64,000 nucleotides of DNA from a bacterium (GTDB taxonomy: Bacteria > UBA10199 > 2-02-FULL-50-16 > JAJFLM01), in assembly GCA_965216315.1 (NCBI GenBank), contig CBDCFN010000016.1:416001-480000 (forward strand), in the 5' to 3' direction. A program made the translations under genes and the position numbers. Positions 30,948-54,787 of the stretch are shown piece by piece. The notes under the pieces are model-generated. The model saw only the letters and a list, made by a program, of their open reading frames with translations, had not been told where the DNA came from and ran no database searches. Numbering within the stretch: the first letter of the stretch is position 1; the number at the start of each line of letters is the position of its first letter.

Positions 30948-30965
30948 TTTCGCACCTAGCTCACT

Positions 30966-30991: not shown

Positions 30992-31048
30992 TCCAAATTA
31001 GAAAAAGTGAAAAGTTTTCTATATTCTCTATAATTTCAACATGTTATT

Positions 31049-32488
31049 TTAGTTGCATATTAATAGAAAAGGACCAGCTCCAGTGAGGGCCTCACGCGCA
31101 CAAGTCTCATTGACGATTTCCTGAGCAGTCAGGGCACGATTGTAGACCGTGACATCATCTATGATTCCATCGAAATTATAGAGAGAAGCTGAAGGCATCC
31201 CAGTTGTATCGATGGAGCCACCAATCCGCGTCGGGGCGGGATTGAGAGTCGTGCCCGCCAACGCATCGGATACAACCATAACCGTCTCTTCAGTTCCATC
31301 GACAAAAAGTTTAGCTCCACTAGCCATCGTGGATCCATCATAGGTGACGGCCACATGATGGGGAGTCCCCGGGGAATTAAAGAGAGTCGTCGAATCAATG
31401 CGGAGTCGGTTGCCCGTACTGCTGTCACTCACCAAGAAGAGATCGAGGGTGTCAGTAGAACTAAAGCCAAACCAATAACCTCGTTGCAAGACGGGATCGG
31501 TATAGTCGGCCCGTGCAAAGATAGTATGGTCGGAGCCAACAGCCTGGCGGTTGGTCCAGGCGGAGATAGTAAAGGGGCTCGAAGCATCGAAATTCAAGAT
31601 GTCACCGAGTTCAACGAAATCGTCAGTGCCATCGAAGGTCAAGGCTCCCCCGATAAAGCCCGGGACCCAGGCAGATGCGAGATCGAAATTAGTCAGGACT
31701 CCATTGTTGCCTGCACTGCTGGAATCAGTAGCGGAACTGCCAGCGCCGTTGTCCATACGCCACCAGCCGAGTAAGGAATTGTCGGTGGAGAAGGAGCGCA
31801 CGGGACTGTAGTCCGTACAGTCGGTTCCGCCCGCATCGTAACAGGTCTGGACCTTCCAAAAATAACTTTGCGATGGGGTTAAAGGATCGATGACACGGAA
31901 GCGATTGGTGTCGATGGTTTCATTGGGGCACTCGTCGGCATCATCGATATCGGCCAGCCCGACCGCGGTGTAGCAGGAACGATACCAGGTGGAGTTGCCT
32001 CCCGGAATGACGCCGTCTTGCCAGGACATAAAGGCGCGTGCGGGTGGCAATGTCTGTCCATCGGTGGGGAGCGATTGAGTTGGGATGTGGTCGGAGGGAT
32101 AACCGGCTCCACTATCATCATTGGCATCGGAGCTGGCGTCGACGATTGGGCCACCATCAGGGCCCCCGTCGCCAGGACCAATAGTGCCATCACGTGCACC
32201 GACATATGAGTCATTAAATGAACATCCAGCCAAAAGACATAAGATCGTGCTAAGAATAAGACTCTCTAATAGCGATGAAGAGGCGCTTTCTTTAATTGTT
32301 GTAGGATCATGAATAGCTGGCTTTTTAATATGCCTCTGTGGCCGAATATTTGCTGTGGATCCAATTAATTTGGATTCTTGTATTGAGAGCGATGTAAAGG
32401 TTTTCTGCGTTTGCAGAGGAGTACTGCAAAGAACAGTTTGTGATAACAACGATGATGATATACCGCTAATAATGTTCATAAGGCGCAA
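31049..32488 (-). CDS. LamG domain lipoprotein, paralog 3
   Basis: Long leader, lipobox LAGC (Cys89), same architecture. Start is TTG 32488 or ATG 32479. Confidence 0.8.
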   Translation of the reverse strand: MRLMNIISGISSSLLSQTVLCSTPLQTQKTFTSLSIQESKLIGSTANIRPQRHIKKPAIHDPTTIKESASSSLLESLILSTILCLLAGCSFNDSYVGARDGTIGPGDGGPDGGPIVDASSDANDDSGAGYPSDHIPTQSLPTDGQTLPPARAFMSWQDGVIPGGNSTWYRSCYTAVGLADIDDADECPNETIDTNRFRVIDPLTPSQSYFWKVQTCYDAGGTDCTDYSPVRSFSTDNSLLGWWRMDNGAGSSATDSSSAGNNGVLTNFDLASAWVPGFIGGALTFDGTDDFVELGDILNFDASSPFTISAWTNRQAVGSDHTIFARADYTDPVLQRGYWFGFSSTDTLDLFLVSDSSTGNRLRIDSTTLFNSPGTPHHVAVTYDGSTMASGAKLFVDGTEETVMVVSDALAGTTLNPAPTRIGGSIDTTGMPSASLYNFDGIIDDVTVYNRALTAQEIVNETCAREALTGAGPFLLICN

Positions 32489-32541
32489 CCGCTAACATTA
32501 AAGATAGTCAGGCTATCCAGCAGTATCGCACCTGAATCTAG

Positions 32542-32567
32542 CATCGTATTTCATTACAAAAAGTTGT
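32542..32567 (-). promoter_or_regulatory. Shared bipartite promoter-like motif (paralog 3)
   Basis: ACAAC TTTTT gtaatgaaat ACGATG. Confidence 0.65.
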
Positions 32568-32664
32568 GCAAAACTTCATGAGCTGCTGCGATAGGGCTAT
32601 AACTTACTGTTATTATTTCTTTTATAGGAGTACTTTTTTATGGCTGGTAGGCGGTTAGGGCAGG

Positions 32665-33888
32665 CTAATTGCAAATAGGACTCAATGCTGACATATCATT
32701 GGTTTCTTGTCGATTGAGAGCCTCGCGGGCGCAGGTTTCATTGACGATTTCCTGAGCAGTCAGGGAACGATTATAAACCGTGACATCATCAATAATTCCC
32801 TCAAAATTATAGAGAGATGCCAGCGGCATCCCAGCTATATCGATAGAACCTCCAATTCGTGCCGGAGCCGGATTGAGAGTTGTGCCCGCCAACGCATCGG
32901 ATACAAACGTTACGGCGTCTTCAACTCCATCGACAAAAAGTTTAGCGCCAGCGGCCATCGTGGACCCATTATAAGTGACGGCCACATGATGGGCAGTATT
33001 CGGGGCATTAAAGAGAGTCGTCGAATCGATGCGGAGCCGATCACCGGTGCTGCTGTCACTAACTAAGAAGAAGTTGAGGGTGTCAGTAGAGCTAAAGCCA
33101 AACCAATAACCCCGTTGAAGGGTTGGGTCGGTATAATCAGCCCGTGCAAAGATAGTATGATCGGCGCCCACGGACTGGCGGTTTGCCCAAGCCGAGATGG
33201 TAAAAGAGTTTGTGGCGTCAAAATTCAAAATATCACCGAGTTCAACGAAGTCATTAGTGCCATCGAAGCTGAGGGCGCCTCCGACAAGGCCCGGGACCCA
33301 GGCGGTTGAGGTATCAAAATTAGTCAGGATTCCATTATTTCCGGCACTGCTGGAATCTGTGGCTGTGCTGCCGGTGCCATCGTCCATGCGCCACCAGCCA
33401 AGAAGTGAATCGTCAGTAGAATAAAAACGAATGGCACTATATTCGGAGACTGTATCGTCATTGTATCTTGTGCGAACCTTCCAGTGATAAGTTGTATTTG
33501 GAGTAAGTAGGGGAGTGACATCATAAGCTGTTGCGACCAATTTGCTTCCAGGGCAAGCAGCGCCTTGAATGGAGGTAAGTCCTTCCGTCGTTTGGCATAT
33601 TTCGAAGCTGCTAATGATCTTGTCCGCCGGAACATTAACTGCTTGCCAAGATTGGAAGGAACGCGTCGGAGGAAGCAGCGAACCGTCGGGTGGGAATGTG
33701 AGCGATGGAATACCACTCCCAACGGCGATGCCACCGACTCCTCCTGAGCCGGTCATTCCACCGAGCTGCCCGTCAGAATACTCATCTAGGCCGAGAATCT
33801 CACTACAGCTGGTTGCGCTTAGCCCTAAGCCGAATACGAGGAGTGCTCGACCAGCTGTTGAATTAATACTTGTACCAATTAGAGTCAT
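32665..33888 (-). CDS. LamG domain lipoprotein, paralog 4
   Basis: Short signal with ATSC (Cys28), Gly-rich linker, same architecture. Confidence 0.8.
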   Translation of the reverse strand: MTLIGTSINSTAGRALLVFGLGLSATSCSEILGLDEYSDGQLGGMTGSGGVGGIAVGSGIPSLTFPPDGSLLPPTRSFQSWQAVNVPADKIISSFEICQTTEGLTSIQGAACPGSKLVATAYDVTPLLTPNTTYHWKVRTRYNDDTVSEYSAIRFYSTDDSLLGWWRMDDGTGSTATDSSSAGNNGILTNFDTSTAWVPGLVGGALSFDGTNDFVELGDILNFDATNSFTISAWANRQSVGADHTIFARADYTDPTLQRGYWFGFSSTDTLNFFLVSDSSTGDRLRIDSTTLFNAPNTAHHVAVTYNGSTMAAGAKLFVDGVEDAVTFVSDALAGTTLNPAPARIGGSIDIAGMPLASLYNFEGIIDDVTVYNRSLTAQEIVNETCAREALNRQETNDMSALSPICN

Positions 33889-33890
33889 AC

Positions 33891-35165
33891 CTAATTACAA
33901 ATTGAAGGCAAGGCAGACATGTCATTAGTTTCCTGTCGATTAACGGCCTCGCGCGCACAGGTCTCATTGACGATCTCTTGAGCAGTCAGGGCACGGTTGT
34001 AAACCGTGACATCATCTATGATTCCATCGAAATTATAGAGGGAGGCTGAAGGCATGCCAGTGACATCAACCGATCCACCAATCCGCGCCGGAGCGGGATT
34101 GAGAGTCGTGCCCGCCAACGCATCGGATACAACCGTAACCGTCTCTTCAGTCCCATCCACGAAAAGTTTGGCTCCACTAGCCATCGTGGAGCCGTCATAG
34201 GTCACGGCCACATGATGGGGAGTATTCGGGGTATTAAAGAGAGTCGTCGAATCGATGCGGAGTCGGTTGCCCGTACTGCTGTCACTAACCAAGAAGAGGT
34301 CGAGGGTGTCAGTAGAACTAAAGCCAAACCAATAACCTCGTTGCAGGACGGGATCCGTATAATCAGCCCGTGCAAAGATGGTGTGGTCGGAGCCCGCAGC
34401 CTGGCGGTTGGTCCACGCGGAAATAGTAAAAGGGCTCGAAGCATCAAAGTTCAAGATGTCACCGAGCTCAACGAAGTCGTCAGTGCCATCGAAGGTCAAG
34501 GCCCCGCTGACCAAGCCCGGGACCCAGGCGGTTGAGGTATCAAAATTAGTCAGGGTGCCGTTATTGCCCGCACTGCTGGAATCACTGGCTGTGCTGCCGG
34601 AACCTTCATTGAAGCGCCACCAGCCGAGTAAGGAATTGTCGGTGGAGAAGGAGTGCACGGGGCTGTAGTCCGTACAGTCGGTTCCGCCCGCATCGTAACA
34701 GGTCTGGACCTTCCAAAAATAACTTTGCGATGGGGTTAAAGGATCGATAATACGAAAAAGGTTGGTATCGATCAATTCATTCGGACAGTTCGCGGCGTTT
34801 GAGATAGCGGCTATATTAGCCGCATGGCAGGAACGATACCAGGTGGAATTGCCCTCAGGAACGACACCATCTTGCCAGGATATAAACGCACGCGCAGGCG
34901 GCAATGATTGTTTGTCAGCCGGTTGTGATTGAAGTGGGATGTGATCGGCAGGATAACTGTTGTCGATGGTTCCGCCACTGCCGCCCATTCCGGCTGTTCC
35001 GCCCGTCGTTATCATGCCACCGGTTCCACCGGTAGAGCTCCCTGGAGGATCGCCAATTTTGTCCCGGTCGACTTCAGTTAGGAATGAGCAGCTTGCGACG
35101 CCCATACTGAATCCCAGCGCGAGTGCAAGTCGAGAGCTGGTTGCAGATGCCATGAATCCGTTCAT
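33891..35165 (-). CDS. LamG domain lipoprotein, paralog 5
   Basis: Short signal with VASC (Cys26), Gly/Thr linker. AAGGAG SD. Confidence 0.8.
   Translation of the reverse strand: MNGFMASATSSRLALALGFSMGVASCSFLTEVDRDKIGDPPGSSTGGTGGMITTGGTAGMGGSGGTIDNSYPADHIPLQSQPADKQSLPPARAFISWQDGVVPEGNSTWYRSCHAANIAAISNAANCPNELIDTNLFRIIDPLTPSQSYFWKVQTCYDAGGTDCTDYSPVHSFSTDNSLLGWWRFNEGSGSTASDSSSAGNNGTLTNFDTSTAWVPGLVSGALTFDGTDDFVELGDILNFDASSPFTISAWTNRQAAGSDHTIFARADYTDPVLQRGYWFGFSSTDTLDLFLVSDSSTGNRLRIDSTTLFNTPNTPHHVAVTYDGSTMASGAKLFVDGTEETVTVVSDALAGTTLNPAPARIGGSVDVTGMPSASLYNFDGIIDDVTVYNRALTAQEIVNETCAREAVNRQETNDMSALPSICN
33946..34748. repeat. About 800-bp near-identical direct repeat, copy A (within paralog 5)
   Basis: Matches 35312-36114 (offset 1366) with only a handful of substitutions seen by eye. 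Confidence 0.9.
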
Positions 35166-35193
35166 ATAATATATCTCCTTCTCCAGTGTGTGG

Positions 35194-35219
35194 TGTCGAC
35201 TAGAGGCAAGAATTGTTGT
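35194..35219 (-). promoter_or_regulatory. Shared bipartite promoter-like motif (paralogs 5-4)
   Basis: ACAAC AATTC ttgcctctag TCGACA. Confidence 0.5.
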
Positions 35220-35271
35220 GGAACCGAAATAAAATTCGTTTACTGGAGTAAACAGCTAAAAGGTGCTTATG

Positions 35272-37032
35272 CTATTGACAGGGACTTGGGAGCGGATCCG
35301 AACTCGCAAGAGCCTCGCGCGCACAGGTCTCATTGACGATCTCTTGAGCAGTCAGGGCACGGTTGTAAACCGTGACATCATCTATGATTCCATCGAAATT
35401 ATAGAGGGAGGCTGAAGGCATGCCAGTGACATCAACCGATCCACCAATCCGCGCTGGGGCGGGATTGAGAGTCGTGCCCGCCAACGCATCGGATACAACC
35501 GTAACCGTCTCTTCAGTCCCATCCACAAAAAGTTTAGCTCCACTAGCCATCGTGGAGCCGTCATAGGTCACGGCCACATGATGGGGAGTATTCGGGGTAT
35601 TAAAGAGAGTCGTCGAATCGATGCGGAGTCGGTTGCCCGTACTGCTGTCACTAACCAAGAAGAGGTCGAGGGTGTCAGTAGAACTAAAGCCAAACCAATA
35701 ACCTCGTTGCAGGACGGGATCCGTATAATCAGCCCGTGCAAAGATGGTGTGGTCGGAGCCCGCAGCCTGGCGGTTGGTCCACGCGGAAATAGTAAAAGGG
35801 CTCGAAGCATCAAAGTTCAAGATGTCACCGAGCTCAACGAAGTCGTCAGTGCCATCGAAGGTCAAGGCCCCGCTGACCAAGCCCGGGACCCAGGCGGTTG
35901 AGGTATCAAAATTAGTCAGGGTGCCGTTATTGCCCGCACTGCTGGAATCACTGGCTGTGCTGCCGGAACCTTCATTGAAGCGCCACCAGCCGAGTAAGGA
36001 ATTGTCGGTGGAGAAGGAGTGCACGGGGCTGTAGTCCGTACAGTCGGTTCCGCCCGCATCGTAACAGGTCTGGACCTTCCAAAAATAACTTTGCGATGGG
36101 GTTAAAGGATCGATGACACGGAAGCGATTGGTGTCGATGGTTTCATTGGGGCACTCGTCGGCATCATCGATATCGGCCAGCCCGACCGCGGTGTAACAGG
36201 AACGATACCAGGTGGAGTTGCCTCCTGGAATGACGCCGTCCTGCCAGGACGTAAAGGCGCGCGCGGGTGGCAATGTCTGTCCATCGGTGGGGAGCGATTG
36301 AGTTGGGATGTGGTCGGACGGATAAACAGTTCCAGCATCAGTCATGTCGGCCACATCGTCCGGTCCGTCATCTGTATCAGTATCAAGGACAGCGTCGGGA
36401 GAGGTATCAATTGTTCCATCAGAACTGTCTGTATCAGCCAGGCTGTCACTCGTATTTATGTCAGAAATATCCGCAGATGTATCGGTGATTACATCTGCAT
36501 CGTTTTCATTTATGTCAGGTATGTCAAATTCTACATCTACATCTTGAGGGACGTCTATTAAAGCTATGTCTGTGTCGGCATCTTCGACGCGAGAATCTTG
36601 GATATCTCTTTCCACATCATTAATCGTGTCATCCTCTGCATCTGGAATGAAAAGGTCAGGTAGGGGGGCGTCACCGCCAATCCCGCTATCGAGGAGATCA
36701 GGGTCCAAAGATTCTCCGTCAATTTGGTCAAACCGGCTCAAGTCACCATCAAATTGGCAGCCTGCACTGAAGATTAGGAGTCCTGCGGTAATGCCAAGTA
36801 AACGCTTTGCGAGACTATAGGACCTCTTCGGAGTTTCGACAGTTGATGCAGGGAATCCCGTTCTTTCAGTGAACTGAAAAGTCTGATTACTCTCTGTCGT
36901 AATTGGAATAAAACGAGTCTCATTTGCCTGTTGATGAGTGGGTAGTGTTGCTAAGGTACCAGTTTGTAATGAATTGCTGAGTGCAAGTGACGTTAATGTA
37001 GATGATGTGTTAGATAAGGATATGAAACTCAT
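35272..37032 (-). CDS. LamG domain lipoprotein, paralog 6 (long Asp-rich linker)
   Basis: Start moved to ATG 37032: it has a GGAG SD, and the shared promoter-like motif falls inside the longer ORF call. Lipobox SAGC (Cys92). Confidence 0.8.
   Translation of the reverse strand: MSFISLSNTSSTLTSLALSNSLQTGTLATLPTHQQANETRFIPITTESNQTFQFTERTGFPASTVETPKRSYSLAKRLLGITAGLLIFSAGCQFDGDLSRFDQIDGESLDPDLLDSGIGGDAPLPDLFIPDAEDDTINDVERDIQDSRVEDADTDIALIDVPQDVDVEFDIPDINENDADVITDTSADISDINTSDSLADTDSSDGTIDTSPDAVLDTDTDDGPDDVADMTDAGTVYPSDHIPTQSLPTDGQTLPPARAFTSWQDGVIPGGNSTWYRSCYTAVGLADIDDADECPNETIDTNRFRVIDPLTPSQSYFWKVQTCYDAGGTDCTDYSPVHSFSTDNSLLGWWRFNEGSGSTASDSSSAGNNGTLTNFDTSTAWVPGLVSGALTFDGTDDFVELGDILNFDASSPFTISAWTNRQAAGSDHTIFARADYTDPVLQRGYWFGFSSTDTLDLFLVSDSSTGNRLRIDSTTLFNTPNTPHHVAVTYDGSTMASGAKLFVDGTEETVTVVSDALAGTTLNPAPARIGGSVDVTGMPSASLYNFDGIIDDVTVYNRALTAQEIVNETCAREALASSDPLPSPCQ
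35312..36114. repeat. About 800-bp near-identical direct repeat, copy B (within paralog 6)
   Basis: Matches 33946-34748. Confidence 0.9.
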
Positions 37033-37082
37033 TTTTTTCTCCGCAATACGTATATAGTAATACCGTTCATATTGCGCGAAAG

Positions 37083-37108
37083 AATCGTATTGTTGGATGG
37101 AAAGTTGC
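37083..37108 (-). promoter_or_regulatory. Shared bipartite promoter-like motif (paralog 6)
   Basis: GCAAC TTTCC atccaacaat ACGATT. Confidence 0.6.
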
Positions 37109-37197
37109 GGAAAAACAAGGTTAGGTGTCAAATAAACTTAACACTTGAATACAAAAGATAGCGATATCTTTAAAGAGAGTGCTACATCACTCAAATA

Positions 37198-38643
37198 TCA
37201 ATTGCATATTGACGGTAAGGGATCAGAGCCAGCGAGAGCTTCGCGCGCGCAAGTCTCATTGACGATTTCCCGAGCAGTGAGGGCTCGATTATAGATCACG
37301 AGATCATCAAGAACTCCATCAAAGCTATAGAGAGAAGCTAAGGGCATTCCACTTGGATCAATAGAGCCACCAATCCGTGCCGAAGCGGAATTGAGGGTCG
37401 TGCCTGTTAATGCATCGGTGACTACAGTGGAGGTTTCTTCAGTTCCGTCGACAAAGAGCCTTGCCCCTGCAGCCATAGTTGAGCCGTCATAGGTGACGGC
37501 AACATGATGAGGAGCGCTGGGGGTATCGAAGACAGTTGTTGAATCAATACGAATCCGGTTTCCGGTACTGCTATCGCTGACGAAGAAGAGATCAAGCGTA
37601 TCAGAAGAGCTGAATCCAAACCAATAACCACGTTGTAGGGCTGGATCCGTATAATCCGCCCTGGCAAAAATAGTATGATCAGACCCAACGGATTGACGGT
37701 TAGTCCAGGCGGAGATTGTATAGGGGGTCGTTGAATCGAAATTTAAAGTATCACCGAGCTCTACAAAGTCATTCGTACCATCAAAGTTTAAGGCCCCACC
37801 AATAAAACCCGGAACCCAGGCGGAAGCGATATCAAAATTAGTCAGGGTGCCGTTATTGTCAGCACCGCTGGAATCACTAGCCGTCATTCCGGAACCTTCA
37901 TTGAAGGTATAGCGTGCAAGCAAGGAGCTATCTGTGTTGACCATGCGCAGGGCACTGCCCATGGAGCGCGAACCATCATCGTATAAAGCTCTTACCTTGA
38001 CATGATAGGTAGAGCTTGGATTTGTAATATTAATTGCACCGAATGGAGACGTTACAGTGTTGCTCTGTGGGCATTCAGTAGAATCATCGATAGATGTAGT
38101 CCCAGTTGTTGTATAGCAAATCTCGTATCCTGCAATAGATCTGCCCGGAGGGAGTGTAGCCGCTGGATCCCAGCGGATAAAAATACGGTTGTTGGGCAAA
38201 GAGATATCTGTTGCAGGAATCGTAATCGTCGAATTGTCGTCAATGACTGGACCACTGTCACCGGCATCATTGGTGCTTCCATCTATATCGGCATCCGGGC
38301 TTGCATCGGGAATGGGTCCTCCATCGGGGCCCCCGTCACCTCCACCATCGATAGTGACACCACGGCCTCTTCCATCTAATAAGCAACCACTGCCAAATAA
38401 ACTGAGCACGCCTCCGATAATGAAAGTCGGTAACACTAAAGCGGCATGGCGAAGTCTGCGCTGGTTTGTTTCGTTGAGTAAGCGCGTCAGTGTCGAATTT
38501 TGCGTCACGGATTCGAGTAGAGGTTGAGCCAAATGGTTCGTGTTCGTTGTACTCGGAAGGCTTGGGGGCAGCTGCTGTAAAGAACTCGCCAGGACGGGCC
38601 GAGCCGACAGTAGGAATGGTGTCATCGGATTGATTAGACGCAT
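37198..38643 (-). CDS. LamG domain lipoprotein, paralog 7
   Basis: GGAG SD, long leader, GSGC (Cys87), divergent FN3-like domain, LamG. Confidence 0.8.
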   Translation of the reverse strand: MRLINPMTPFLLSARPVLASSLQQLPPSLPSTTNTNHLAQPLLESVTQNSTLTRLLNETNQRRLRHAALVLPTFIIGGVLSLFGSGCLLDGRGRGVTIDGGGDGGPDGGPIPDASPDADIDGSTNDAGDSGPVIDDNSTITIPATDISLPNNRIFIRWDPAATLPPGRSIAGYEICYTTTGTTSIDDSTECPQSNTVTSPFGAINITNPSSTYHVKVRALYDDGSRSMGSALRMVNTDSSLLARYTFNEGSGMTASDSSGADNNGTLTNFDIASAWVPGFIGGALNFDGTNDFVELGDTLNFDSTTPYTISAWTNRQSVGSDHTIFARADYTDPALQRGYWFGFSSSDTLDLFFVSDSSTGNRIRIDSTTVFDTPSAPHHVAVTYDGSTMAAGARLFVDGTEETSTVVTDALTGTTLNSASARIGGSIDPSGMPLASLYSFDGVLDDLVIYNRALTAREIVNETCAREALAGSDPLPSICN

Positions 38644-38666
38644 GGTTTCTCCAAATTACTCAAGCA

Positions 38667-40124
38667 TCAGTTGCATATAGATGGTAGAGAGCCGGATCCA
38701 GCAAGAGCCTCACGCGCACAAGTCTCATTAGAGATTTCCTGAACAGTCAGGGCCCGATTATAAACAGCGATATCATCAATGATCCCCTCAAAATTATAGA
38801 GAGATGCCAGTGGCATCCCCGCTGTATCGATAGAACCTCCAATCCGTGCCGGGGCGGGATTGAGAGTCGTGCCCGCCAACGCATCGGATACAACCGTAAC
38901 CGTCTCTTCAGTTCCATCCACAAAAAGTTTAGCTCCACTAGCCATCGTGGAGCCGTCATAGGTCACGGCCACATGATGGGGAGTACTAGGTGTGTTAAAG
39001 ACAGTTGTAGAATCGATGCGGAGTCGGTTACCCGTACTGCTGTCACTCACCAAAAAGAGGTTGAGGGTGTCAGTAGAGCTAAAGCCAAACCAATAACCTC
39101 GTTGCAGGACGGGATCCGTATAATCGGCCCGTGCAAAGATAGTATGGTCAGCGCCGACCGACTGGCGGTTGGTCCAAGCCGAGATGGTAAAGGGGGTGGC
39201 TGAGTCAAAATTTAAGATATCACCGAGTTCCACAAAGTCATTGGCACCGTCAAAACTTAGGCCTCCGCCGACAAGGCCTGGATTCCAGGCGGTTGAGGTA
39301 TCAAAATTAGTCAGGGTGCCGTTATTGCCCGCACTGCTGGAATCACTGGCTGTGCTGCCGGAACCTTCATTGAAGCGCCACCAACCGAGCAGAGAATTAT
39401 CAGTCGAGAAGGAACGCACGGGGCTGTAGTCCGTACAGTCGGTTCCGCCCGCATCGTAACAGGTCTGGACCTTCCAGAAATGACTCTGAGCCGGGCTTAA
39501 GGGGTCAATCACGCGGAAACGATTGGTGTCGATGGTCTCATTGGGGCACTCGGTAGTGTCATCGACATCGGTCATGGCCGTGGCATGACAGGAGCGATAC
39601 CAGGTAGAGGCGCCACCTGGGATGACGCCGTCTTGCCATGACATGAAGGCGCGCGTGGGCGCGAGGAGTTGTCCGTCAGCCGGCAACGATTGCGTCGGGA
39701 TGTGATCGGATGGATAACCGGTACCACCGTCTTCGGCATCGCCGGCGTCACCCGGACCGCCATCCATATCGGCATCCGGACTTGCATCGAGGATGGGGCC
39801 TCCATCGGGGCCGCCATCACCACCATCAGGTCGCGGCGGAGCGGTGCCGCTTCGGTCTAAGAAGCAGCCACTACCGAACAGGGCGAGCAGGCCCCCAATC
39901 ACAAAAGCGGGTATGGCTAAGGCAGAGCGGCGGAGCCGCTGCCGGCTTGGCTCACTGAATAAACGCGTCAGCCCAGAATCCGGAGAAACGGGCTCTAGAG
40001 ATATTTGGGTTGGCGCCGAAATGTCAGCTTGAGTCTGGAGGCCAGTTGGCGCTGGTGATACAGAACTCGCTAAGATGGGCTGAGCCGATAGCAGAAAAGA
40101 CGTTGTCTGACTTATTAGGTGCAT
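38667..40124 (-). CDS. LamG domain lipoprotein, paralog 8
   Basis: GGAG SD, long leader homologous to paralog 7, GSGC (Cys87), FN3-like plus LamG. Confidence 0.8.
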   Translation of the reverse strand: MHLISQTTSFLLSAQPILASSVSPAPTGLQTQADISAPTQISLEPVSPDSGLTRLFSEPSRQRLRRSALAIPAFVIGGLLALFGSGCFLDRSGTAPPRPDGGDGGPDGGPILDASPDADMDGGPGDAGDAEDGGTGYPSDHIPTQSLPADGQLLAPTRAFMSWQDGVIPGGASTWYRSCHATAMTDVDDTTECPNETIDTNRFRVIDPLSPAQSHFWKVQTCYDAGGTDCTDYSPVRSFSTDNSLLGWWRFNEGSGSTASDSSSAGNNGTLTNFDTSTAWNPGLVGGGLSFDGANDFVELGDILNFDSATPFTISAWTNRQSVGADHTIFARADYTDPVLQRGYWFGFSSTDTLNLFLVSDSSTGNRLRIDSTTVFNTPSTPHHVAVTYDGSTMASGAKLFVDGTEETVTVVSDALAGTTLNPAPARIGGSIDTAGMPLASLYNFEGIIDDIAVYNRALTVQEISNETCAREALAGSGSLPSICN

Positions 40125-40222: not shown

Positions 40223-41095
40223 TCATTGAAAATATTTGATATTTGAGCTTTTAAAAGTGAAGTAAAAGACGAGGGCAAAGCCCCAACCGGCGAGGACGTC
40301 GATGAAGTAATGGTGATTCAAGTAGACGGCCGCAAATGCGGCCAAGGCGGCATAGAAATGGAAACACCAACGAAAATGCCCCATTATTCTATGGGCGTAG
40401 CAGGCAACCAGCAGGGGGAATGCGGCATGCATGGAGGGAATAGCGCCGAAGACCCAGGCACTGCGTGCATAAGTATTCTGGAAGTGTTCAAAACCGATCA
40501 AATTATCGAAACGAATCAGGCCTGCTGCGGAGCCAGGAATGGCCCAGCCGACCTTGGCAAAGCCATGAGTGGCTACATACCAAGGTGGCGCGGATGGATA
40601 GGCGATGTAGGCAATGAATGCAAAGAGATTCATGAAGAGAAATGCCCAGCGGAAATTATTGAAATAAGGAGAGCGTCTGATCCACAAGTAGAGTGCAAAG
40701 CCGATTGGAATAACTACGTGAGCGGCATAGACAGCCCCAGTAATGATGTCGAGGATATCATTGTTGTGTGCCATGAAGTAGTTCGTTGGAATAAAGCCCT
40801 TATGAAATCCGATGACTTCAAATAACGCGGCTTCAATGCGGTATGGGCTTTCAATGTGAATTGCACCGGCCCAGTCTTTGGGGAAGATGCGGAGTAGATC
40901 GTAGAGAATGCCGAAGAGTGCAAAAGGAAAAAAATCGATCACCCAACGACGTGTCTGCTGGTGGGTTAGATAGAGCCCAATCATGCAGCTGATGAGTAGG
41001 GCGTGTTCCCACCGAAGCCCAATGCTGAGGCTGATGAGACCTAGATAAGCCAGCCAGAAACAAGGAAACCAGCTTTGTTTCAGTATGTTCTCCAT
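40223..41095 (-). CDS. Aur1/IPC-synthase-like PAP2 membrane phosphotransferase (inositol lipid synthase candidate)
   Basis: 6-7 TMs. YPSAPPWY, FGAIPSMHAA and HHYFIDV match the Aur1/PAP2_3 catalytic motifs. Confidence 0.8.
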   Translation of the reverse strand: MENILKQSWFPCFWLAYLGLISLSIGLRWEHALLISCMIGLYLTHQQTRRWVIDFFPFALFGILYDLLRIFPKDWAGAIHIESPYRIEAALFEVIGFHKGFIPTNYFMAHNNDILDIITGAVYAAHVVIPIGFALYLWIRRSPYFNNFRWAFLFMNLFAFIAYIAYPSAPPWYVATHGFAKVGWAIPGSAAGLIRFDNLIGFEHFQNTYARSAWVFGAIPSMHAAFPLLVACYAHRIMGHFRWCFHFYAALAAFAAVYLNHHYFIDVLAGWGFALVFYFTFKSSNIKYFQ

Positions 41096-41214
41096 AATAG
41101 AGGCGTACAGGTAGCGTTCGAATCCATGCCTGTCAATGGCGAGCCCGGCAAATCCCTGAGCGGCGTGAGTTTGCTAACATTGTGATATTACTATAGATTT
41201 GCTATTCTACCTTT

Positions 41215-42849
41215 ATGGCACAGACAGCTTCACAGCGGGTATCACCTCGAGCTGAACTCCTGGAACTCCAGAAAAAAATCTTCCAGCGTAATGAGCGCAT
41301 TATACGCACGGAGGCGATTGTGGAAGAACCGGGTTTTGCACTCTATGAACGGCGTTATAAAAAACAAGTTGCTGATTTTGAGCGGGCGGCCCGAGTTGAA
41401 GATGTACTGAAGGCGATTGAGGCCGCCGACATTATCTATCTCGGCGATTATCACACCAATCCGCAATCTCAACGGACTTTACTACGTTTATTGAAACTCG
41501 TTTCAGGTCGGATTCCTCATCTCGCGCTGGGATTGGAACTCGTTAAAGATACACATCAAAAGAGTCTAGATCGGTATTTGGCGAATAAAATCGGAGCTGC
41601 CACGTTTTTAAAGAGAATTGAATTCAAGAAGTATTGGTACTTTGATCTGTGGGATAATTTTAAGCCGATCTTCGACTTTGCTCGCTACCATCGCATTCAG
41701 GTCTATGGAATCGAATCCGCGAAGGTGCAAGATAAGGGCCTCAAAGTTCGCGATGAATATTCAGCGGAGATCATTGCAAAAATTATCGAAGCACAGCCTG
41801 ATTTAAAGCTCTTTATTTTTGTAGGTGACTTGCACATTGCCCCTCAGCATCTGCCAAGAGAAGTCGATAAAGCATTGGTTAGACGAAAGCTCGAGCGTAA
41901 ACGATTGCTCATCTATCAGAATAGCGAGAATATTTATTGGAAGCTGGCGGAACAACGACGTGAGGAAAAAGTTGAGATCGTTCGAGTGGACCAGGAAAGC
42001 TATTGTTTAATGAATACCCCGCCCATCGTGTGGCAGCAGACCTTCTTGAACTGGCTGGAGAACGAAGGAGAAGCGATCGACTATGTGGATGCCAAGCATA
42101 CATTGACGGAACTTTTAGAGCGTGTGGCCGATTTTCTCGAGATTCGTTTGCCTGGAGACTATGATGAATTTGAGGTGTTTACCTGTGGAGATCTGAGTTT
42201 TTTAGAGGCGCTTCGAAAGGACGGAACATTTACGGCAAAAGAACTTAAGGTGATCAAGCATCAGATCCTCTCGTCTGAAAGTTACTTTATTCCACGTAAG
42301 CGGTTTATATATCTTGCCAATGTGTCTATCAATCATGCGGCGGAAGAGGCATCACATTATCTGAAATACTTATGCTCAGGAGAAGAGTTTGAACGAACTT
42401 TATCGGATGCTTTTTATGCGAATACATTGCATGAAGCGATAGGTTTTTTTGGGTCTAAGATTATTAATCACAAAAGAAAATGTATTCATGAAAAACAGCT
42501 CAAAGAATTAGTAGAGTACTTGAGTGCGATTCACCTTCCGGGAAATCGCCGCTTTGAACTGGAAATTGCCTATCTTGTCCGCGAACATAAAAAACTTGAA
42601 CGGCGTAAAAACCCTATGCCCTACCAGGAGACCATTCCTCATCGGACAGAGGTCTTCTTGGGGGCGACCCACATGCTAGGGTATATGCTGGGCGACCGCC
42701 TCTATCACGCCCTGGTTAGCGGAGCGATTAGCAAGAAGGAGATTCGCGCTCTGATGACAAACCCTATGTTGGAAGAGGGGGAGCCATTCCTCATCTATAT
42801 CGATTTGGTGCGAAGGACGCGGATGGTGAAATTACCGCGGCGTTTGTAG
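41215..42849 (+). CDS. ChaN/TraB(Tiki)-like domain protein with C-terminal HExxG-containing extension
   Basis: IIYLGDYH, LALGLE, RDE..A and VGDLH resemble the EreA/ChaN fold. No signal peptide. Confidence 0.6.
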   Translation: MAQTASQRVSPRAELLELQKKIFQRNERIIRTEAIVEEPGFALYERRYKKQVADFERAARVEDVLKAIEAADIIYLGDYHTNPQSQRTLLRLLKLVSGRIPHLALGLELVKDTHQKSLDRYLANKIGAATFLKRIEFKKYWYFDLWDNFKPIFDFARYHRIQVYGIESAKVQDKGLKVRDEYSAEIIAKIIEAQPDLKLFIFVGDLHIAPQHLPREVDKALVRRKLERKRLLIYQNSENIYWKLAEQRREEKVEIVRVDQESYCLMNTPPIVWQQTFLNWLENEGEAIDYVDAKHTLTELLERVADFLEIRLPGDYDEFEVFTCGDLSFLEALRKDGTFTAKELKVIKHQILSSESYFIPRKRFIYLANVSINHAAEEASHYLKYLCSGEEFERTLSDAFYANTLHEAIGFFGSKIINHKRKCIHEKQLKELVEYLSAIHLPGNRRFELEIAYLVREHKKLERRKNPMPYQETIPHRTEVFLGATHMLGYMLGDRLYHALVSGAISKKEIRALMTNPMLEEGEPFLIYIDLVRRTRMVKLPRRL

Positions 42850-42874
42850 GAACGCCCTGTTGTTTCCCGGCATC

Positions 42875-42956
42875 CCTCCCTTTGTAAAGGGAGGTTAGGA
42901 GGGATTTAATTGGCTGTAATTTAAATCCTCCTTGTTCCCCCTTTCAAAAGGGGAGG
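42875..42956. repeat. Inverted pair of REP-like palindromes between convergent genes
   Basis: CCTCCCTTTGTAAAGGGAGG..GAGGGATTT and an inverted, degenerate copy AAATCCTCC..CCCCCTTTCAAAAGGGGAGG. Confidence 0.7.
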
Positions 42957-42957
42957 T

Positions 42958-43362
42958 CTAGTTGTCATCTGAATACCAAGTTGCTGGCTGAGGACGGGTA
43001 TCTACATGGAGGTGATTGCGGTAGATGCCAATGCCGGTAAATCCGACGTCACGAGCGTGATTGGCGAGTTCAAGTGGTTTCATCTTTTCTACCCATATGT
43101 CGGCTGCTTTGCCGAGCAGGTGTTGGCTGTGGCGTGCCGGACGGTAGCCTTGGCGGCGTAGCCGCTCCTGGTCGGCCTGGGTTCGGTCTCCACTCGTTAC
43201 ATGGATATCGAGCCCAATTTTATTGGCGAGAGCGTCGAGCTTTTCGCGCACTTCGGGATCCGAAACAGACTTGCCATGGTAGTTAACTGCTCCTGTTTGC
43301 TTGGGTTCGGATAGTTGTCCATTTGTTAGACGAGGTTCGGGAAGTCGGCAAATGTGATGCAT
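42958..43362 (-). CDS. Peptidase M15A-like Zn D-Ala-D-Ala peptidase domain protein
   Basis: VTSGDR, SQHLLGKAADI, GIGIY and HLHVDTR. AAGGAG SD. Confidence 0.85.
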   Translation of the reverse strand: MHHICRLPEPRLTNGQLSEPKQTGAVNYHGKSVSDPEVREKLDALANKIGLDIHVTSGDRTQADQERLRRQGYRPARHSQHLLGKAADIWVEKMKPLELANHARDVGFTGIGIYRNHLHVDTRPQPATWYSDDN

Positions 43363-43388
43363 AGTGATCTCCTTTGCCGTGATTAACT

Positions 43389-43405
43389 AGCAAATGAGAT
43401 GCCAA
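43389..43405 (-). promoter_or_regulatory. Sigma54 (-24/-12) promoter of the M15 peptidase gene
   Basis: TTGGCATCTCATTTGCT has GG-N10-GC spacing. An IHF-like TTTCAGCTATTTA lies about 30 nt further upstream. Confidence 0.7.
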
Positions 43406-43546
43406 GTTGATGGCGTTGAAATGAGTCGATATTTTCAGCTATTTACCGCGTGAAGAGAGTCAAATTGAATCGCTAAGTTTCATTCTGAGACGCTAATCAT
43501 AATAGTCGAGGCCAAGGTGCGTAATTTGCTCTTCAGTCATGATAAT

Positions 43547-43616
43547 GGGGGTGTGTGCAGAGCCCAACACCCCCAAACCCCCGGATTGGTTCACTCGGAC
43601 GGAGTGAATCCGATCC
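43547..43616. repeat. Double-hairpin REP-like element downstream of ino1
   Basis: GGGGGTGT..ACACCCCC, AAACCCCC, then GGATTGGTTCACTC-ggacg-GAGTGAATCCGATCC. Confidence 0.55.
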
Positions 43617-43642
43617 TCCTTCACAACAAGTTAGAGCGTAAA

Positions 43643-44956
43643 TTAATCATAGTACTCTAAACCCAAGTGAGTAATCTGCTCTTCACCCATTAAATAGCGC
43701 AAGGTGTTCTTGAGCTTCATCTGCTGGATGAAGAGATCATGTTCCGGGTAGAGGCCTGCAGCGGCCTGGGGGCTCTTGAAATAGAATGAGAGCCATTCCT
43801 GGATACCTTTCATGCCGGCACGTTTGGCGAGGTCGAGGAACAGGATGAGATCTAAAACCAACGGTGCCGCGAGGATGGAGTCCTTGCAGAGAAAATCCAC
43901 CTTGATCTGCATTTTCTCGCCGAGCCACCCGAAAATATCGATATTGTCCCAGCCTTCTTTGTTGTCACCGCGAGGCGGGTAATAGTTGATCCGGACTTTG
44001 TGATAAATATCCCCGTAAAGATCCGGATACAGTTCCGGTTGCAGGATGGAGTCGAGGACGCCGAGTTTACTTTCTTCCTTGGTCTTGAAGGAGCTCGGGT
44101 CATCAAGGACTTCACCGTCGCGATTTCCTAAAATATTCGTTGAAAACCAGCCCTCGACGCCCAGGCAGCGGGCCTTAAAGCCGGGGGATAAGATCGTTTT
44201 CATCAGGGTCTGTCCGGTTTTGAAGTCTTTTCCGCAGATCGGTGTGCTGAATTCCTTGGACAGATCGATCATGGCCGGGAAATCGGCAGACAGATTCGGG
44301 GCGCCATTGGCGTAGGGAATACCGAGTTTGCAGGCCGCATAGGCATAAACCATGCTCGGGGCAATATTGGGGTCGTTATTTTCCAGCCCTTTTTCAAAGG
44401 CGGCGAGATCGTTATGCACTGCCGTCGGTTCAATGAAGACCTCAGTCGAGCCACACCAGATCATAACGAGGCGGTCGATGTTCTTTTTTGTTCGGAATTT
44501 TTCGATGTCCTCTATTAATTGATCCGCTAAGGCCTTTTTGTTGGCGCCTTTTTTAACGTTTGGGCCATCAAGCCGTTTGACGTAATCGCGATCAAACACG
44601 GCCGGCATGGGGCGGATTTCTTCGAGTGGTTCGCGAATGGAGTCGAGCAGTTCTTTGGGGAGAACGCCGGCGTGCGAGGCGGCTTCATAGGCGTTTTCTT
44701 CAAAAATATCCCAGGCCAAAAATTCAATGTCATGCAATTTGGCAAGCGGAGCAAAGTCTTTAATGAAAGGAGTCCGGTTTTCAGTGCGCTTGCCAAGTCG
44801 TATGGTTCCCATTTGAGTGAGGGACCCGATTGGTTTGGATAATCCTTGGCGAATCGCTTCGACACCGGCGACAAAAGTTGTACTGACAGCACCAAGTCCC
44901 ACTAAGAGAACGCCGAGTTTACCGTCGGCCGGTTCAATATTCTTATTTATTTCCAT
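43643..44956 (-). CDS. ino1: myo-inositol-1-phosphate synthase
   Basis: WCGSTE, NGAPN, GKDFKTGQT, NILGNRDG, YYPPRGDNKEGWD and CKDSILAAP. Confidence 0.95.
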   Translation of the reverse strand: MEINKNIEPADGKLGVLLVGLGAVSTTFVAGVEAIRQGLSKPIGSLTQMGTIRLGKRTENRTPFIKDFAPLAKLHDIEFLAWDIFEENAYEAASHAGVLPKELLDSIREPLEEIRPMPAVFDRDYVKRLDGPNVKKGANKKALADQLIEDIEKFRTKKNIDRLVMIWCGSTEVFIEPTAVHNDLAAFEKGLENNDPNIAPSMVYAYAACKLGIPYANGAPNLSADFPAMIDLSKEFSTPICGKDFKTGQTLMKTILSPGFKARCLGVEGWFSTNILGNRDGEVLDDPSSFKTKEESKLGVLDSILQPELYPDLYGDIYHKVRINYYPPRGDNKEGWDNIDIFGWLGEKMQIKVDFLCKDSILAAPLVLDLILFLDLAKRAGMKGIQEWLSFYFKSPQAAAGLYPEHDLFIQQMKLKNTLRYLMGEEQITHLGLEYYD

Positions 44957-51586: not shown

Positions 51587-54500
51587 ATGACTCTTTTTCT
51601 CGCCACCAGCATGCAGCCCATGATGGCACTCGCAGCCGGAGCTCCCGTGACCACCAGTGGGCTGAGCCAGCACCTCAATGGGGCCTTGCGCACCTATGAG
51701 CGGACCCAACGACTCAATGATCTCATCCAAGCTGTCGAGGGCGGTTTGGCTCAGGCGCAAGAACTGACCATCAGGGATCGTTGGACCGCGCCGCAGCTCG
51801 CTCATTTAGCCCATGCCCTTTCCGGGCTGACGCGCCAGCATCAGAGTTTTTTGCTCGCTGATTCACAAGCGTCGGAGCCCCAGATGTCATTGTTGTTTAA
51901 AGAAACGGAAAATGTGATCGAAGCGCTGACCTCTACGGATGACTCACTGATTGTTAGTTCAGATGATCCGGATGATCTGGTTAATTGGTCCCAAGTTGCG
52001 GATGACTATGAACAGTTGCTTGATTCAGGTATTTTTCAGCGAGGTCATTTTCCTCTCCTGCATGGTCTTGGCCAGATGGGACTCTCATTAGGGGCTCGGA
52101 TTGCGCTGAAGTTAGATGGTGCGCAATGGTTTGGCCGTCTTACGGACACTCAACTCGAACATTCAGCCGAAGTTTATTTGTATGGACGTTCGCGGGGTCG
52201 CGATCCGGAGCCGACGAGTTTACTCAATAGTCATCATCGGGTGCCGGAAAAACAATTGCAGGCCGAGCATGGTTGGATCCATCAGGCTGTCAGAGGCATC
52301 GGCCGGAGCGAGCGGCGCGAACAGCAACGCGTCTCTCCATTTCAAGTGACCGGTATTCCATCGAAAGAGTTTGTCAAAGAACTCTATAAGGATGATTACA
52401 GTTTTATGAAGCAGATGCCCGAAGGGGCTATTTTGGTCAGTCCTATCAAGTCTTATATCGCTCCGGACGTTTATTTTAAGATACTCAAAGATTATGCAGC
52501 GGCGCGCAAACAGCGTAATGATGAATCAGAGCCGATTCGCGTCCAAGGGGGCGCGTCGATGGAGGATATCTACGACATGGTTCGGTATATTACGAACCGG
52601 AATGACATCAAGACCGTCCATATTGGTGGTGAATATTTTGCAAAAAATCTTTACATGTATTCAGAAGAGCCGCCACGCCACACAGAACTAGTGTTTGCAT
52701 CGAAAGATATTGAAGCGGCCGAACAGGCGGCACGCTATTTCCGTATTCCGGGACAATTAGAAGTCAGCATCACCGATGACGTTAGTACCGTGATGCTCGG
52801 CGGGGTCATGAAGAATATTGCGGCTTATGCGATGGGCTTTACGGATTTAGAGGAGATGGAACGACTGTATAAGGCCGGCGATGAGACTAACTGTCAGTTG
52901 TATATTGAGACGGGGGACGGAGAAAATGGCTATGTCGATGATCCCCGTAAGTTATCAGGACGTCGTCGCCGTTGGTGGAAGATCCTGGTTGATATTGCTG
53001 AAGGGGTCAAAGGTGAACCGGTCGATCCGCCGCGGGAAGTGTTAAAGGATTTTTGCGGCTGTACTATTTTCAACCGGGATCTGGTTGCGGATCTTTTCCG
53101 TGCCGTTCGCATCAGCTATGATCGGGCGCAGCGCCGTCAGAGCGAGAGTGCTTGGCAGGAATTTCGTGAGGCCGTGCAACAATTTCGAGATCGCGTAGGG
53201 GATTTTGCAAACAGCCGAAATAGACGTGGTGGGCTCCTTCACGCCATGGCGATTTTTGTCAAAGAAGAACTCAAGCGGCCGGAAGAAGCAGCGCTCTTGT
53301 TCTGGGAAAAGACGGTCGAAGGCTATCAGGCCATGCGCGGCTTGCGGGCGACTTTGAGTGATATAGATCCGTTTCTAGCGTCGAGACTGGATATCGGGTT
53401 TAAGCGTTTCTACACAGAGCACGGTGTGCCGCTTCATCCTGAATTAGATCCGCTTGAACCCAAAGCGATTCGCGATGCCGTGATGCAGGGCATAGAGAAT
53501 ACGAATTTTGTTTCGAGTCAGCCGATGTTGGTATCAGCGCGACGGGTCAAAGAGATTTTACAAATACCTTGGTTGACACGAACGGCCTATAATTTTCTCA
53601 AGAACAAGATCAGGGATCTGCAAGATCACATTGCGACTCCCGATCGAGAGCGTGGTCGTGTCGAGCGTGATTTTCGTTTGTTTGATCGGGCGTTGCAATT
53701 ATTCGATGCAGGTATGCTGGTTCGGGCGGGAGATCATATCGCAACAGAACCTGTGCACCCTTATCGGCACATTACGCGTTTTGAAGGTCGCGTGGATCAG
53801 GGGAAAGGTGACGGGATTCACCACTATCATATCGGAATTGAAGGTGATCAGGGGCTTGATCGTGTGCGTGATGTCTCTCTGCTTTTGTCACATCACCAAG
53901 CTCGTTCGGAGCCAACTGAAATTCATATTGAGATCGAAATTTTTGATGCGACGCGCGAGATGCCGCGCGTCTTATGGGCGATGCAAAACGTGGCCAACCG
54001 ATTCCGGGGAAATCAGGATGCGCCGATTAATGTTGATTTTGTCTTCCATACACCAACGGGAAGTCCGCGTTTGAAGGTAACTTCTGAGTTGGCGCAAGAG
54101 ACTCCGGATCATTGGCAGTTTCGTTATGAGCGTGGCATGGATTATCTCATTAGTGCGACCGGTCTCAACTACGATGAATTGACGAGCCATTTCAAACATC
54201 ACGTTAAGATGATTAATTCGATCGTTGGTAAGGATAGCTGGGTTGGTTTAGGCGCGACCAACGTGGGTCAGTATTCAACCGCCTTCAGGGATGCTTTGCA
54301 GGTAGCCGGTGAAAAGGCTTTCTTTGGAGTTTATAGTGATCCCGAACAGGAATACCCTGATGAAGTGGTCGTGGCCCATTTTGATTCCGATGGGGACCTG
54401 CGTTTATATGATAGCCGCATCCAAGAGCTCATGGCGCGTGATTCGGAACGACCTCAAGCCAATGGCAATCAAGAGGAGCGCGATTGGGACGCTTATTTCC

Positions 54501-54787
54501 GCGGACTTCCGGTCGAGCAATATAAAGAGGCCTATGAACGGTTGACGGGTAAGTCATATGGTGAGCTGCTTCCGCTCAATATTTATTTTCCATTGGAAGA
54601 GGTCCTGGTTGGCAATCGCGATGCACGACTTTCACCTCCACGGCTTTTTGTATTTCTGCAAAATTTGAAGGGCGCAAAAGCGAGAGAATTTGCGGAGTGG
54701 ATGGAGCCGCGGCATTTTAGAGAGCCCAATGATCAACTCTATTTGGATATTCGAGATAAAGTTTTAAGTATGCTCCGTTCCATGTAA
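51587..54787 (+). CDS. Large hypothetical protein containing a divergent GpsA-like (NAD(P)H glycerol-3-phosphate dehydrogenase) domain
   Basis: Colinear GpsA-like motifs: GLGQMG, LVSPIKS, IGGEYFAKNL, ASKD, TDDV..VMLGGVMKN, SRNRRG and VEG. Confidence 0.6.
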   Translation: MTLFLATSMQPMMALAAGAPVTTSGLSQHLNGALRTYERTQRLNDLIQAVEGGLAQAQELTIRDRWTAPQLAHLAHALSGLTRQHQSFLLADSQASEPQMSLLFKETENVIEALTSTDDSLIVSSDDPDDLVNWSQVADDYEQLLDSGIFQRGHFPLLHGLGQMGLSLGARIALKLDGAQWFGRLTDTQLEHSAEVYLYGRSRGRDPEPTSLLNSHHRVPEKQLQAEHGWIHQAVRGIGRSERREQQRVSPFQVTGIPSKEFVKELYKDDYSFMKQMPEGAILVSPIKSYIAPDVYFKILKDYAAARKQRNDESEPIRVQGGASMEDIYDMVRYITNRNDIKTVHIGGEYFAKNLYMYSEEPPRHTELVFASKDIEAAEQAARYFRIPGQLEVSITDDVSTVMLGGVMKNIAAYAMGFTDLEEMERLYKAGDETNCQLYIETGDGENGYVDDPRKLSGRRRRWWKILVDIAEGVKGEPVDPPREVLKDFCGCTIFNRDLVADLFRAVRISYDRAQRRQSESAWQEFREAVQQFRDRVGDFANSRNRRGGLLHAMAIFVKEELKRPEEAALLFWEKTVEGYQAMRGLRATLSDIDPFLASRLDIGFKRFYTEHGVPLHPELDPLEPKAIRDAVMQGIENTNFVSSQPMLVSARRVKEILQIPWLTRTAYNFLKNKIRDLQDHIATPDRERGRVERDFRLFDRALQLFDAGMLVRAGDHIATEPVHPYRHITRFEGRVDQGKGDGIHHYHIGIEGDQGLDRVRDVSLLLSHHQARSEPTEIHIEIEIFDATREMPRVLWAMQNVANRFRGNQDAPINVDFVFHTPTGSPRLKVTSELAQETPDHWQFRYERGMDYLISATGLNYDELTSHFKHHVKMINSIVGKDSWVGLGATNVGQYSTAFRDALQVAGEKAFFGVYSDPEQEYPDEVVVAHFDSDGDLRLYDSRIQELMARDSERPQANGNQEERDWDAYFRGLPVEQYKEAYERLTGKSYGELLPLNIYFPLEEVLVGNRDARLSPPRLFVFLQNLKGAKAREFAEWMEPRHFREPNDQLYLDIRDKVLSMLRSM

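Follow-up and report, generated by a model that had tools for sequence, protein, structure and literature searches.

An enlarged GpsA-like protein with a conserved active site as a candidate type III secretion cargo in a UBA10199 bacterium

GpsA, a glycerol-3-phosphate dehydrogenase (GPDH), is a small stand-alone housekeeping enzyme of about 335 amino acids (aa). A GPDH can also form part of a longer chain, as in the Dunaliella DsGPDH fusion (PDB 6iuy). One study lists the GPDH active-site network as K120, K204, N205, D260, T264, R269, N270 and Q295; human K204, N205, D260, R269 and N270 bind the carbonyl and phosphate of dihydroxyacetone phosphate (DHAP), while Thr264 lies in the second shell, bonding K204 within a K120-D260-T264-K204 chain (PMC9119304). 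As far as the accessible text of PMC4278537 goes, RipTPS of Ralstonia solanacearum duplicates a housekeeping metabolic enzyme, has additional N-terminal sequence and is found beside the normal gene in a bacterium that bears a T3SS (type III secretion system). The needleless T3SS* of Myxococcus xanthus has, in the portion of its description available to us, effectors that are proposed and not identified (PMC12075869). Here we analyzed a 64,000-nucleotide stretch of DNA (the window; positions 416,001 to 480,000 of contig CBDCFN010000016.1, assembly GCA_965216315.1, here contig C16) from a UBA10199 bacterium whose genome (G000) is 2.96 Mb long and 98.3% complete. Positions 51587-54787 of the window, on the forward strand, form a single open reading frame (ORF) encoding a 1066-aa protein, P0001. 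Our tentative reading, to which we give a probability of about 0.4, is that P0001 is a T3SS cargo protein that works as an active dehydrogenase of the GpsA type and would shift DHAP/glycerol-3-phosphate (G3P) and NAD(P)H inside the cell that receives it. The parts of the gene, in window coordinates, are as follows.

51587..54787, forward strand: the whole P0001 gene, made up of tag, helical bundle, GpsA-like dehydrogenase and C-terminal accessory region; full-length relatives share 36-38% identity
51551..51576, forward strand: sigma-28-like bipartite promoter motif GCAAC-N14-GCCGAAA, with the start codon 10 nt further on; supported by genome spacer counts, a position weight matrix (PWM) and its presence upstream of relatives in genomes G001, G002 and G003
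51587..51649, forward strand: uncharged N-terminal tag (aa 1-21, ...ALAAG), a candidate export signal common to many promoter-linked genes
51650..51949, forward strand: four-helix bundle (aa 22-121) of generic fold; model confidence (predicted local distance difference test, pLDDT) about 50-60, with matches to other bundles
52034..52801, forward strand: GpsA-like NAD(P)-binding Rossmann domain (aa ~150-405) with G160-x-G162-x-x-G165, YGR, K288 and G348-E-Y-F-A, identified by profile, fold and alignment
52802..53440, forward strand: GpsA-like substrate-binding domain (aa 406-618) with K409, N410, D488, C492, R544, N545 and E578, from conservation in 27 cores and the residue roles given in the available part of PMC9119304
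53450..54091, forward strand: C-terminal part 1 (aa 622-835), helices and a mixed six-stranded alpha/beta domain that bears a weak likeness to CDL-CDC1 of eukaryote-type acetyl-CoA carboxylase (ACC)
54092..54784, forward strand: C-terminal part 2 (aa 836-1066), a second alpha/beta domain with helices, pLDDT mostly 85-97, without a match

The predicted structure indicates that the core of P0001 almost certainly folds as GpsA/GPD1. A sequence-only reading of the window had proposed a GpsA-like domain laden with insertions, carrying its motifs in GpsA order and preceded by a shared promoter-like motif. The promoter motif is real, and on re-reading the residue positions every GpsA motif was found at its claimed site (GLGQMG 160-165, LVSPIKS 283-289, IGGEYFAKNL 346-355, VFASKD 369-374, TDDVSTVMLGGVMKNIAAYAMG 396-417, DFCGC 488-492, SRNRRG 543-548 and TVEG 576-579). 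Profile and structure checks both matched aa ~150-618 to the GpsA/GPD1 fold. The insertions amount to about 140 additional residues over seven gaps relative to the genome's own GpsA; landmark spacings are longer by about 17, 13, 29, 6, 26, 45 and 8 residues, and the largest insertion, of 45 residues, runs from the D488 helix to the SRN loop. An AlphaFold model of aa 150-1066 from a 29-row alignment (pLDDT 83.6, predicted template modelling score 0.77) is of low confidence at aa 150-235 (pLDDT 41-57) and of high confidence from aa 240. When the P0001 model was compared with 48,161 representative chains, GpsA/GPD1 took the top six places (Z 23.6-25.2; root-mean-square deviation [rmsd] 3.2-3.8 Å over 278-303 residues, aa ~150-618), and the next-best unrelated family, ketopantoate reductase, reached Z 15.4. 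Foldseek with the 29-row model gave a best E of 1.6e-6, with 16 GPDH entries at the top of a further structure search; a first fold from a 4-row alignment (pLDDT 54.9) had no Foldseek match at E 0.001. GpsA clusters of the ESM Atlas scored 0.87-0.88 with the P0001 core. Scored by language-model features, nameless clusters of 414-502 aa in the same atlas, mostly cyanobacterial, reach 0.91 with the core.

Evidence for GpsA likeness from the single sequence is weak, yet above chance given these profile and fold matches. P0001 alone matched Pfam PF07479 at E 0.033 (aa 398-421; 14.8 bits against a cut-off of 25) and four NCBIfam GpsA hidden Markov models (HMMs) at 17-20 bits (E 3e-4 to 1.5e-3; cut-offs 202-603 bits), and no PDB sequence matched it below E 0.6. 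Family profiles of 5 and 13 rows reached best E values of 0.4 and 0.036 against the PDB, while the family profile matched the source genome's own GpsA at E 1.8e-6 (probability 89.8%). Set beside GpsA/GPD1 (PF01210 + PF07479; PDB 3k96, 1txg, 1z82, 1x0v, 1evy and 6e90), P0001 shares the two-domain fold, retains K120, K204, N205, D260, R269, N270 and the 295 position, and has the bacterial-type motifs (xxFA loop, SRN, TxEG). It differs in its insertions, in an identity of 13-18% in structural alignments, in the change of Thr264 to Cys, and in the addition of the tag, the helical bundle and a 450-aa C-terminal region. We describe P0001 as GpsA-like by fold and residues, since it has the GPDH-specific geometry of a Rossmann plus a 6PGD-like helical domain; we do not class it as a family member because of its Thr264 position, its length of 1066 aa rather than the ~335 aa of the stand-alone enzyme, and its scores below the curated HMM cut-offs. 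The Dunaliella DsGPDH fusion reaches Z 23.8 to the P0001 model, but its GPDH part is canonical in length and its partner domain, which we take to be phosphatase-like, has no match to the extra regions of P0001. A eukaryotic origin of P0001 was considered and is disfavoured by the motifs: the stretch before K409 resembles GPD1L, but the remaining motifs are bacterial-type.

The active site was compared across the 27 rows whose core is complete (two fragments of the 29 were dropped), which share 17-95% identity (median 31%) and are not independent. Only 11 of 463 columns are invariant. These comprise six Gly/Ala positions together with K409, N410, D488, R544 and N545, the only invariant polar residues, which correspond by sequence order and fold match to human K204, N205, D260, R269 and N270. 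E578, at the Q/E295 position, is kept in 25/27 cores. The residue equivalent to human K120 is K288 in P0001, and the family shows two states here: 11 rows pair K288 with G406, the other 16 pair G288 with K406, and no third state occurs; canonical GpsA has Gly at the 406-equivalent in 30/30 sequences. Because residue 406 is one helix turn away from K409, the shift from K288 to K406 reads as a compensatory lysine move that would preserve the oxyanion hole. The K406 rows form one clade in a quick tree (support 89) and retain the lysine across 32-95% identity; long branches meet in this tree, so that it does not support a claim of one origin. At the Thr264 position, a link of the GPDH chain, the family does not keep Thr: Cys (C492, D+4) is found in 26/27 cores and Ser in P0008, against the canonical TC in 29/30 GpsA sequences. 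Rossmann strand 2 ends in YGR/YGH and lacks an acidic residue there, a feature shared with P0012, a bacterial GpsA; this would be compatible with NADP(H). The conserved residues and a second lysine that is never lost argue for a live active site: P0001 is probably catalytically active and, if it is, DHAP/G3P is the substrate towards which we lean. GpsA has here been tripled in size, with its N-termini swapped, one catalytic lysine moved and Thr changed to Cys, while the rest of the active site has been kept.

The sequence-only reading had called P0001 an orphan, which proved wrong, since profile and word-index searches revealed a family spread over one phylum of 93 genomes. A word-index search with P0001 returned three full-length relatives; the same search with P0008 returned P0008 alone and therefore under-reports the family. 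Four of 101 related genomes were matched, including the source genome, with two others of its family matched in full and the same-order genome G003 weakly (E 7e-4). A 5-row profile searched against 1.84 billion representatives gave 13 matches at E 0.001, namely the three relatives, a G003 fragment, eight distant proteins (626-1674 aa) and one canonical GpsA. Over the phylum, a 13-row profile matched 33/93 genomes, many through a shared N-terminal region or canonical gpsA only, and core-only rescoring left 16 genomes (G000, G001, G002, G003, G005, G013, G020, G027, G034, G041, G047, G053, G059, G061, G079 and G082) plus two remote cases (G036 and G063); six candidates per genome were scored, so these counts may miss members. 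Tandem pairs of family genes occur in five genomes, and one copy in G079 is split over three frames. In line with the sequence-only reading, a canonical gpsA is present elsewhere in the source genome, on the same contig (C16:668508-669533; 341 aa, 184.8 bits). We rejected the idea that the P0001 family is a general replacement for canonical gpsA, which is found in 12/16 family-bearing genomes versus 46/77 others and shows no replacement pattern, although the phylum search gave no canonical gpsA match in G001, G003, G013 and G034. Searches of open-access literature turned up nothing that deals with an effector derived from GpsA or with the P0001 family. The family is unnamed and invisible to curated HMMs.

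The regions added to the core are less readily placed. The helical bundle (aa 22-121) gave many bundle matches (Z 7.5-9.7), none prominent, and has no paralogue in the source genome. In a long subfamily of 1330-1720 aa its place is taken by another N-terminal region, one shared with paralogues; a first look gave 58-81 candidates for these per genome in seven genomes. The C-terminal region occurs in 13/93 genomes, always at loci of the P0001 family and never alone; G005, G047 and G003 keep the core and have a shortened or different tail. Conserved residues in the C-terminal ~450 aa are mostly structural, those of part 2 being mainly G, P, W, L, Y and F. The C-terminal profile had no PDB sequence match, one protein in the word-index search and no usable match in the ESM Atlas, and Pfam found no family in more than one of 15 members. 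No fold match was obtained for aa 836-1066, in whole-model structure searches that were filled by other domains. For aa 622-835, Foldseek matched the ACC central domain at E 1e-3, and alignment to yeast ACC 1035-1282 and to the human ACC central domain gave Z 7.4-8.1 and rmsd 4.1-8.7 Å over 134-160 residues. This segment shares the topology described for the eukaryote-type central domain (CDL-CDC1/CDC2; PF08326), in which, in the accessible part of the source, helices lie between strands 3/4 and 4/5 (PMC4833862). The Z scores are within the range of common arrangements, identity is 7-8%, and only aa 622-835 align; the profile-profile comparison (hhalign) with ACC_central was not significant (E 0.24-0.32), and its best alignment covered the same alpha/beta segment. 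ACC_central is encoded in 22/93 genomes of the phylum; of the 13 genomes that have the C-terminal region, 11 are among them, and these are kin and not independent. We treat a relationship of aa 622-835 to the ACC central domain as a lead only, with homology not established, and note a weak predicted resemblance of the C-terminal region to this non-catalytic regulatory domain.

The promoter and the tag connect P0001 to a larger set of genes. In the source genome, GCAAC-N14-G[CG]CGA[AT]A occurs at 28 sites with spacer 14 versus 1-13 at nine other spacers (10-13, 15-19), and a PWM scan, for which the P0001 site was one of the seeds, found 163 sites versus 31-53 in four spacer-shifted controls; 131 of the 163 precede an ORF. 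Independently of that seeding, the motif lies before the family gene in 4/4 same-order genomes and, in loose form, at 4/15 long-subfamily loci and 1/2 remote loci (random windows 7.8%). Canonical gpsA loci carry it in 10/30 cases, all pointing away, and facing gpsA in 0/30. A small gene of ~120 aa divergent from canonical gpsA has a sigma-28-like promoter in several families (L071, L072, L078, L082, L086 and L090); its product is presumably PilZ-like. About 130 ORFs of the source genome stand behind the motif, and many of them start 7-11 nt past the second box, possibly as leaderless mRNAs. Among promoter-linked ORFs of at least 250 aa, 65/105 carry no more than one charged residue at positions 2-21, compared with 206/1428 others; with an LA(S/A)(S/G)-like tag added, the counts are 29/105 and 42/1428, and those 42 look mostly like missed regulon members. 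The tag is present in P0001, P0002 and P0003 and absent from P0005. P0001 has no Sec-type basic n-region and no 19-residue segment with hydropathy above 1.3. Pfam matched 18 of 42 hand-picked tagged ORFs, for the most part with domains of enzymes or of signalling (among them kinases, RelA/SpoT, GGDEF, adenylate cyclase, acyltransferase, malic enzyme, class-V aminotransferase and a single-chain ACC). This tagged ACC is a 2588-aa eukaryote-style protein (BC, BCCP, ACC_central and CT) with a biotin ligase domain, encoded on the reverse strand at C16:1632121-1639887 (L122:225-7988). Eight tandem Laminin_G_3 paralogues lie at 28170-40124 of the window (reverse strand); several start with an uncharged tag and one has the promoter motif. 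After the tag, several of them show what we take to be a lipoprotein signal pattern, that is, two targeting signals in series.

A non-flagellar T3SS is encoded in the source genome (SctV 806 bits, cut-off 692; SctN 620 bits, cut-off 605; matches to SctJ/R/T/U/O/L/Q), with a gene within the cluster for a FliA/WhiG-like sigma that may read the promoter motif. No flagellin was found in this genome; across the phylum, a YscO-like gene is present in 89/93 genomes and flagellin above cut-off in 11. Two secretins lie outside the cluster, and several small ORFs within it have no HMM match. Two such ORFs encode 183 aa (L013:10386-10937; C16:347385) and 162 aa (L013:14408-14896; C16:351407), and their C-termini may resemble those of filament/needle and inner-rod subunits. 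The needle-less state may be a detection limit. Like the M. xanthus T3SS*, as covered in the available text, this system has an export apparatus and a sorting platform with no recognised needle, whereas the M. xanthus system partners a Tad-like Kil pilus and the source genome has no match for a Tad-type second ATPase (PMC12075869). By analogy, RipTPS would be the nearest design precedent for P0001; it differs in enzyme and fold, and its translocation and activity have been demonstrated, both of which are predictions for P0001 (PMC4278537). We do not class P0001 as a T3SS effector, its delivery being something we infer, and rate its export by the T3SS at slightly better than even.

The best reading of these observations would be a repurposed, exported effector acting on G3P/DHAP. 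GpsA would have been duplicated, heavily remodelled and built into export cargo, with P0001 still serving as an oxidoreductase that depends on NAD(P)H and acts on a phosphorylated three-carbon substrate (DHAP/G3P or a near relative). The sigma factor of the T3SS cluster would transcribe the gene, and the uncharged tag, or in the long subfamily the paralogue-shared N-terminal domain, would route the protein via the T3SS into the cell of a host or prey. Once inside, it would alter the pools of DHAP/G3P and NAD(P)H, and so the supply of glycerolipid precursors, and the C-terminal region would act as a non-catalytic docking or regulatory module. A housekeeping role for P0001 is unlikely because canonical gpsA is present in the source genome and in 12 of the 16 family genomes. 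If exported, P0001 would act as a metabolic effector on the DHAP/G3P node and give a needle-less type III system a concrete cargo. The lysine move, for its part, is an experiment of nature with the oxyanion hole formed by two lysines. Several observations weigh against an exported dehydrogenase. Only 4/15 long-subfamily loci show even the loose promoter motif, which also precedes untagged genes and genes of cytoplasmic or Sec-exported appearance, and the tag pattern was defined after the sequences were seen. No canonical AccA was found in the source genome, where carboxyltransferase matches are weak; the tagged single-chain ACC may therefore serve the cell itself, in which case carrying the tag need not mean export. 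Needle families were not matched in this genome (PF09392 best E 0.14, under cut-off), and it has one strong PF00437 pilus/type II secretion ATPase, beside a 989-aa secretin, and no second for a Tad/Kil partner. Within the active site, Cys in place of Thr264 and an altered GPxFA loop (G-E-Y-F-A, G-Y/F-I-P) mean that the substrate may differ, and the lysine move counts as a single evolutionary event, given the one clade.

Part of this evidence would also suit an active, stage-specific GpsA isoenzyme in the bacterium's own cytoplasm, with the regulon as a life-stage programme and the tag as a localisation, compartment or turnover signal. The regulon has self-serving-looking genes (the gene divergent from gpsA at 10/30 loci, regulator genes and Sec-signal genes), the tagged ACC may be the sole ACC of the source genome, four family genomes have no canonical gpsA match, both subfamilies occupy stable chromosomal sites, and no needle is recognised. 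We nevertheless consider this unlikely: the co-occurrence with canonical gpsA shows no replacement, divergence this extreme, with N-termini exchanged and tandem copies in five genomes, typifies cargo and not a housekeeping isoenzyme, and the FliA-like sigma is located inside the T3SS cluster. It is less likely still that the fold and phosphate clamp now serve new chemistry, through C492 and remodelled loops, on another sugar-phosphate, on a lipid-linked substrate (acyl-DHAP) or in thiol-assisted aldehyde oxidation. The near-uniform Cys, the big insertions beside the D488 helix and the R544 loop and the obligate additional C-terminal domain speak for such a change, but every direct DHAP contact listed for GPDH is retained, and Thr264, a second-shell residue in the accessible text of PMC9119304, has a role in bonding K204 that Cys could partly fill, with P0008 carrying Ser. 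A pseudoenzyme, in which the GpsA fold would sense G3P/DHAP or NAD(P)H and switch the C-terminal region as the true output, is improbable. The third Gly of GxGxxG is lost in the long-subfamily rows shown, model confidence is low at aa 150-235, and the C-terminal region is never found alone and resembles a regulatory ACC domain; against these stand the retained polar residues and the lysine present in either of its two positions. We hold as equally doubtful an extension of the exported-dehydrogenase reading in which P0001 would be injected as part of a lipid-precursor kit with the tagged ACC, acyltransferase and malic enzyme, making the host or prey build glycerolipid, with the ACC-type C-terminal module docking the kit and the tag serving as the export signal of a needle-less T3SS.

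The immediate neighbours of P0001 are housekeeping genes (thioredoxin reductase, DUF3187 and OmpA/Pal) and give no functional clue. The short subfamily is flanked by thioredoxin reductase and DUF3187 in 3/3 genomes, the G001 locus being covered only up to the start of thioredoxin reductase, and in three families the long subfamily has a radical-SAM UPF0004 operon on one side and polA on the other. The two remote GpsA-derived domains, L040:1-2307 (G036) and L062:4078-6657 (G063), have other flanks and occur in genomes without a canonical gpsA match; the G063 protein retains the KN, D, RN and EG motifs. Second GpsA domains with canonical scores are found within frames of 438-879 aa in one family (G079:C5:71754, G027:C6:37450, G082:C12:5890 and G041:C172:22345) and are possible younger GpsA fusions. 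No canonical gpsA match was obtained in 35 of the 93 phylum genomes, including whole families (f9 0/6, f17 0/4 and f7 1/10), which suggests that G3P is taken up from a host or obtained by some other route; in the source genome PlsY gave no match. Elsewhere in the window, at 40223-44956, a PAP2_3 membrane protein lies near a myo-inositol-1-phosphate synthase, and the pair may represent an inositol-phospholipid pathway.

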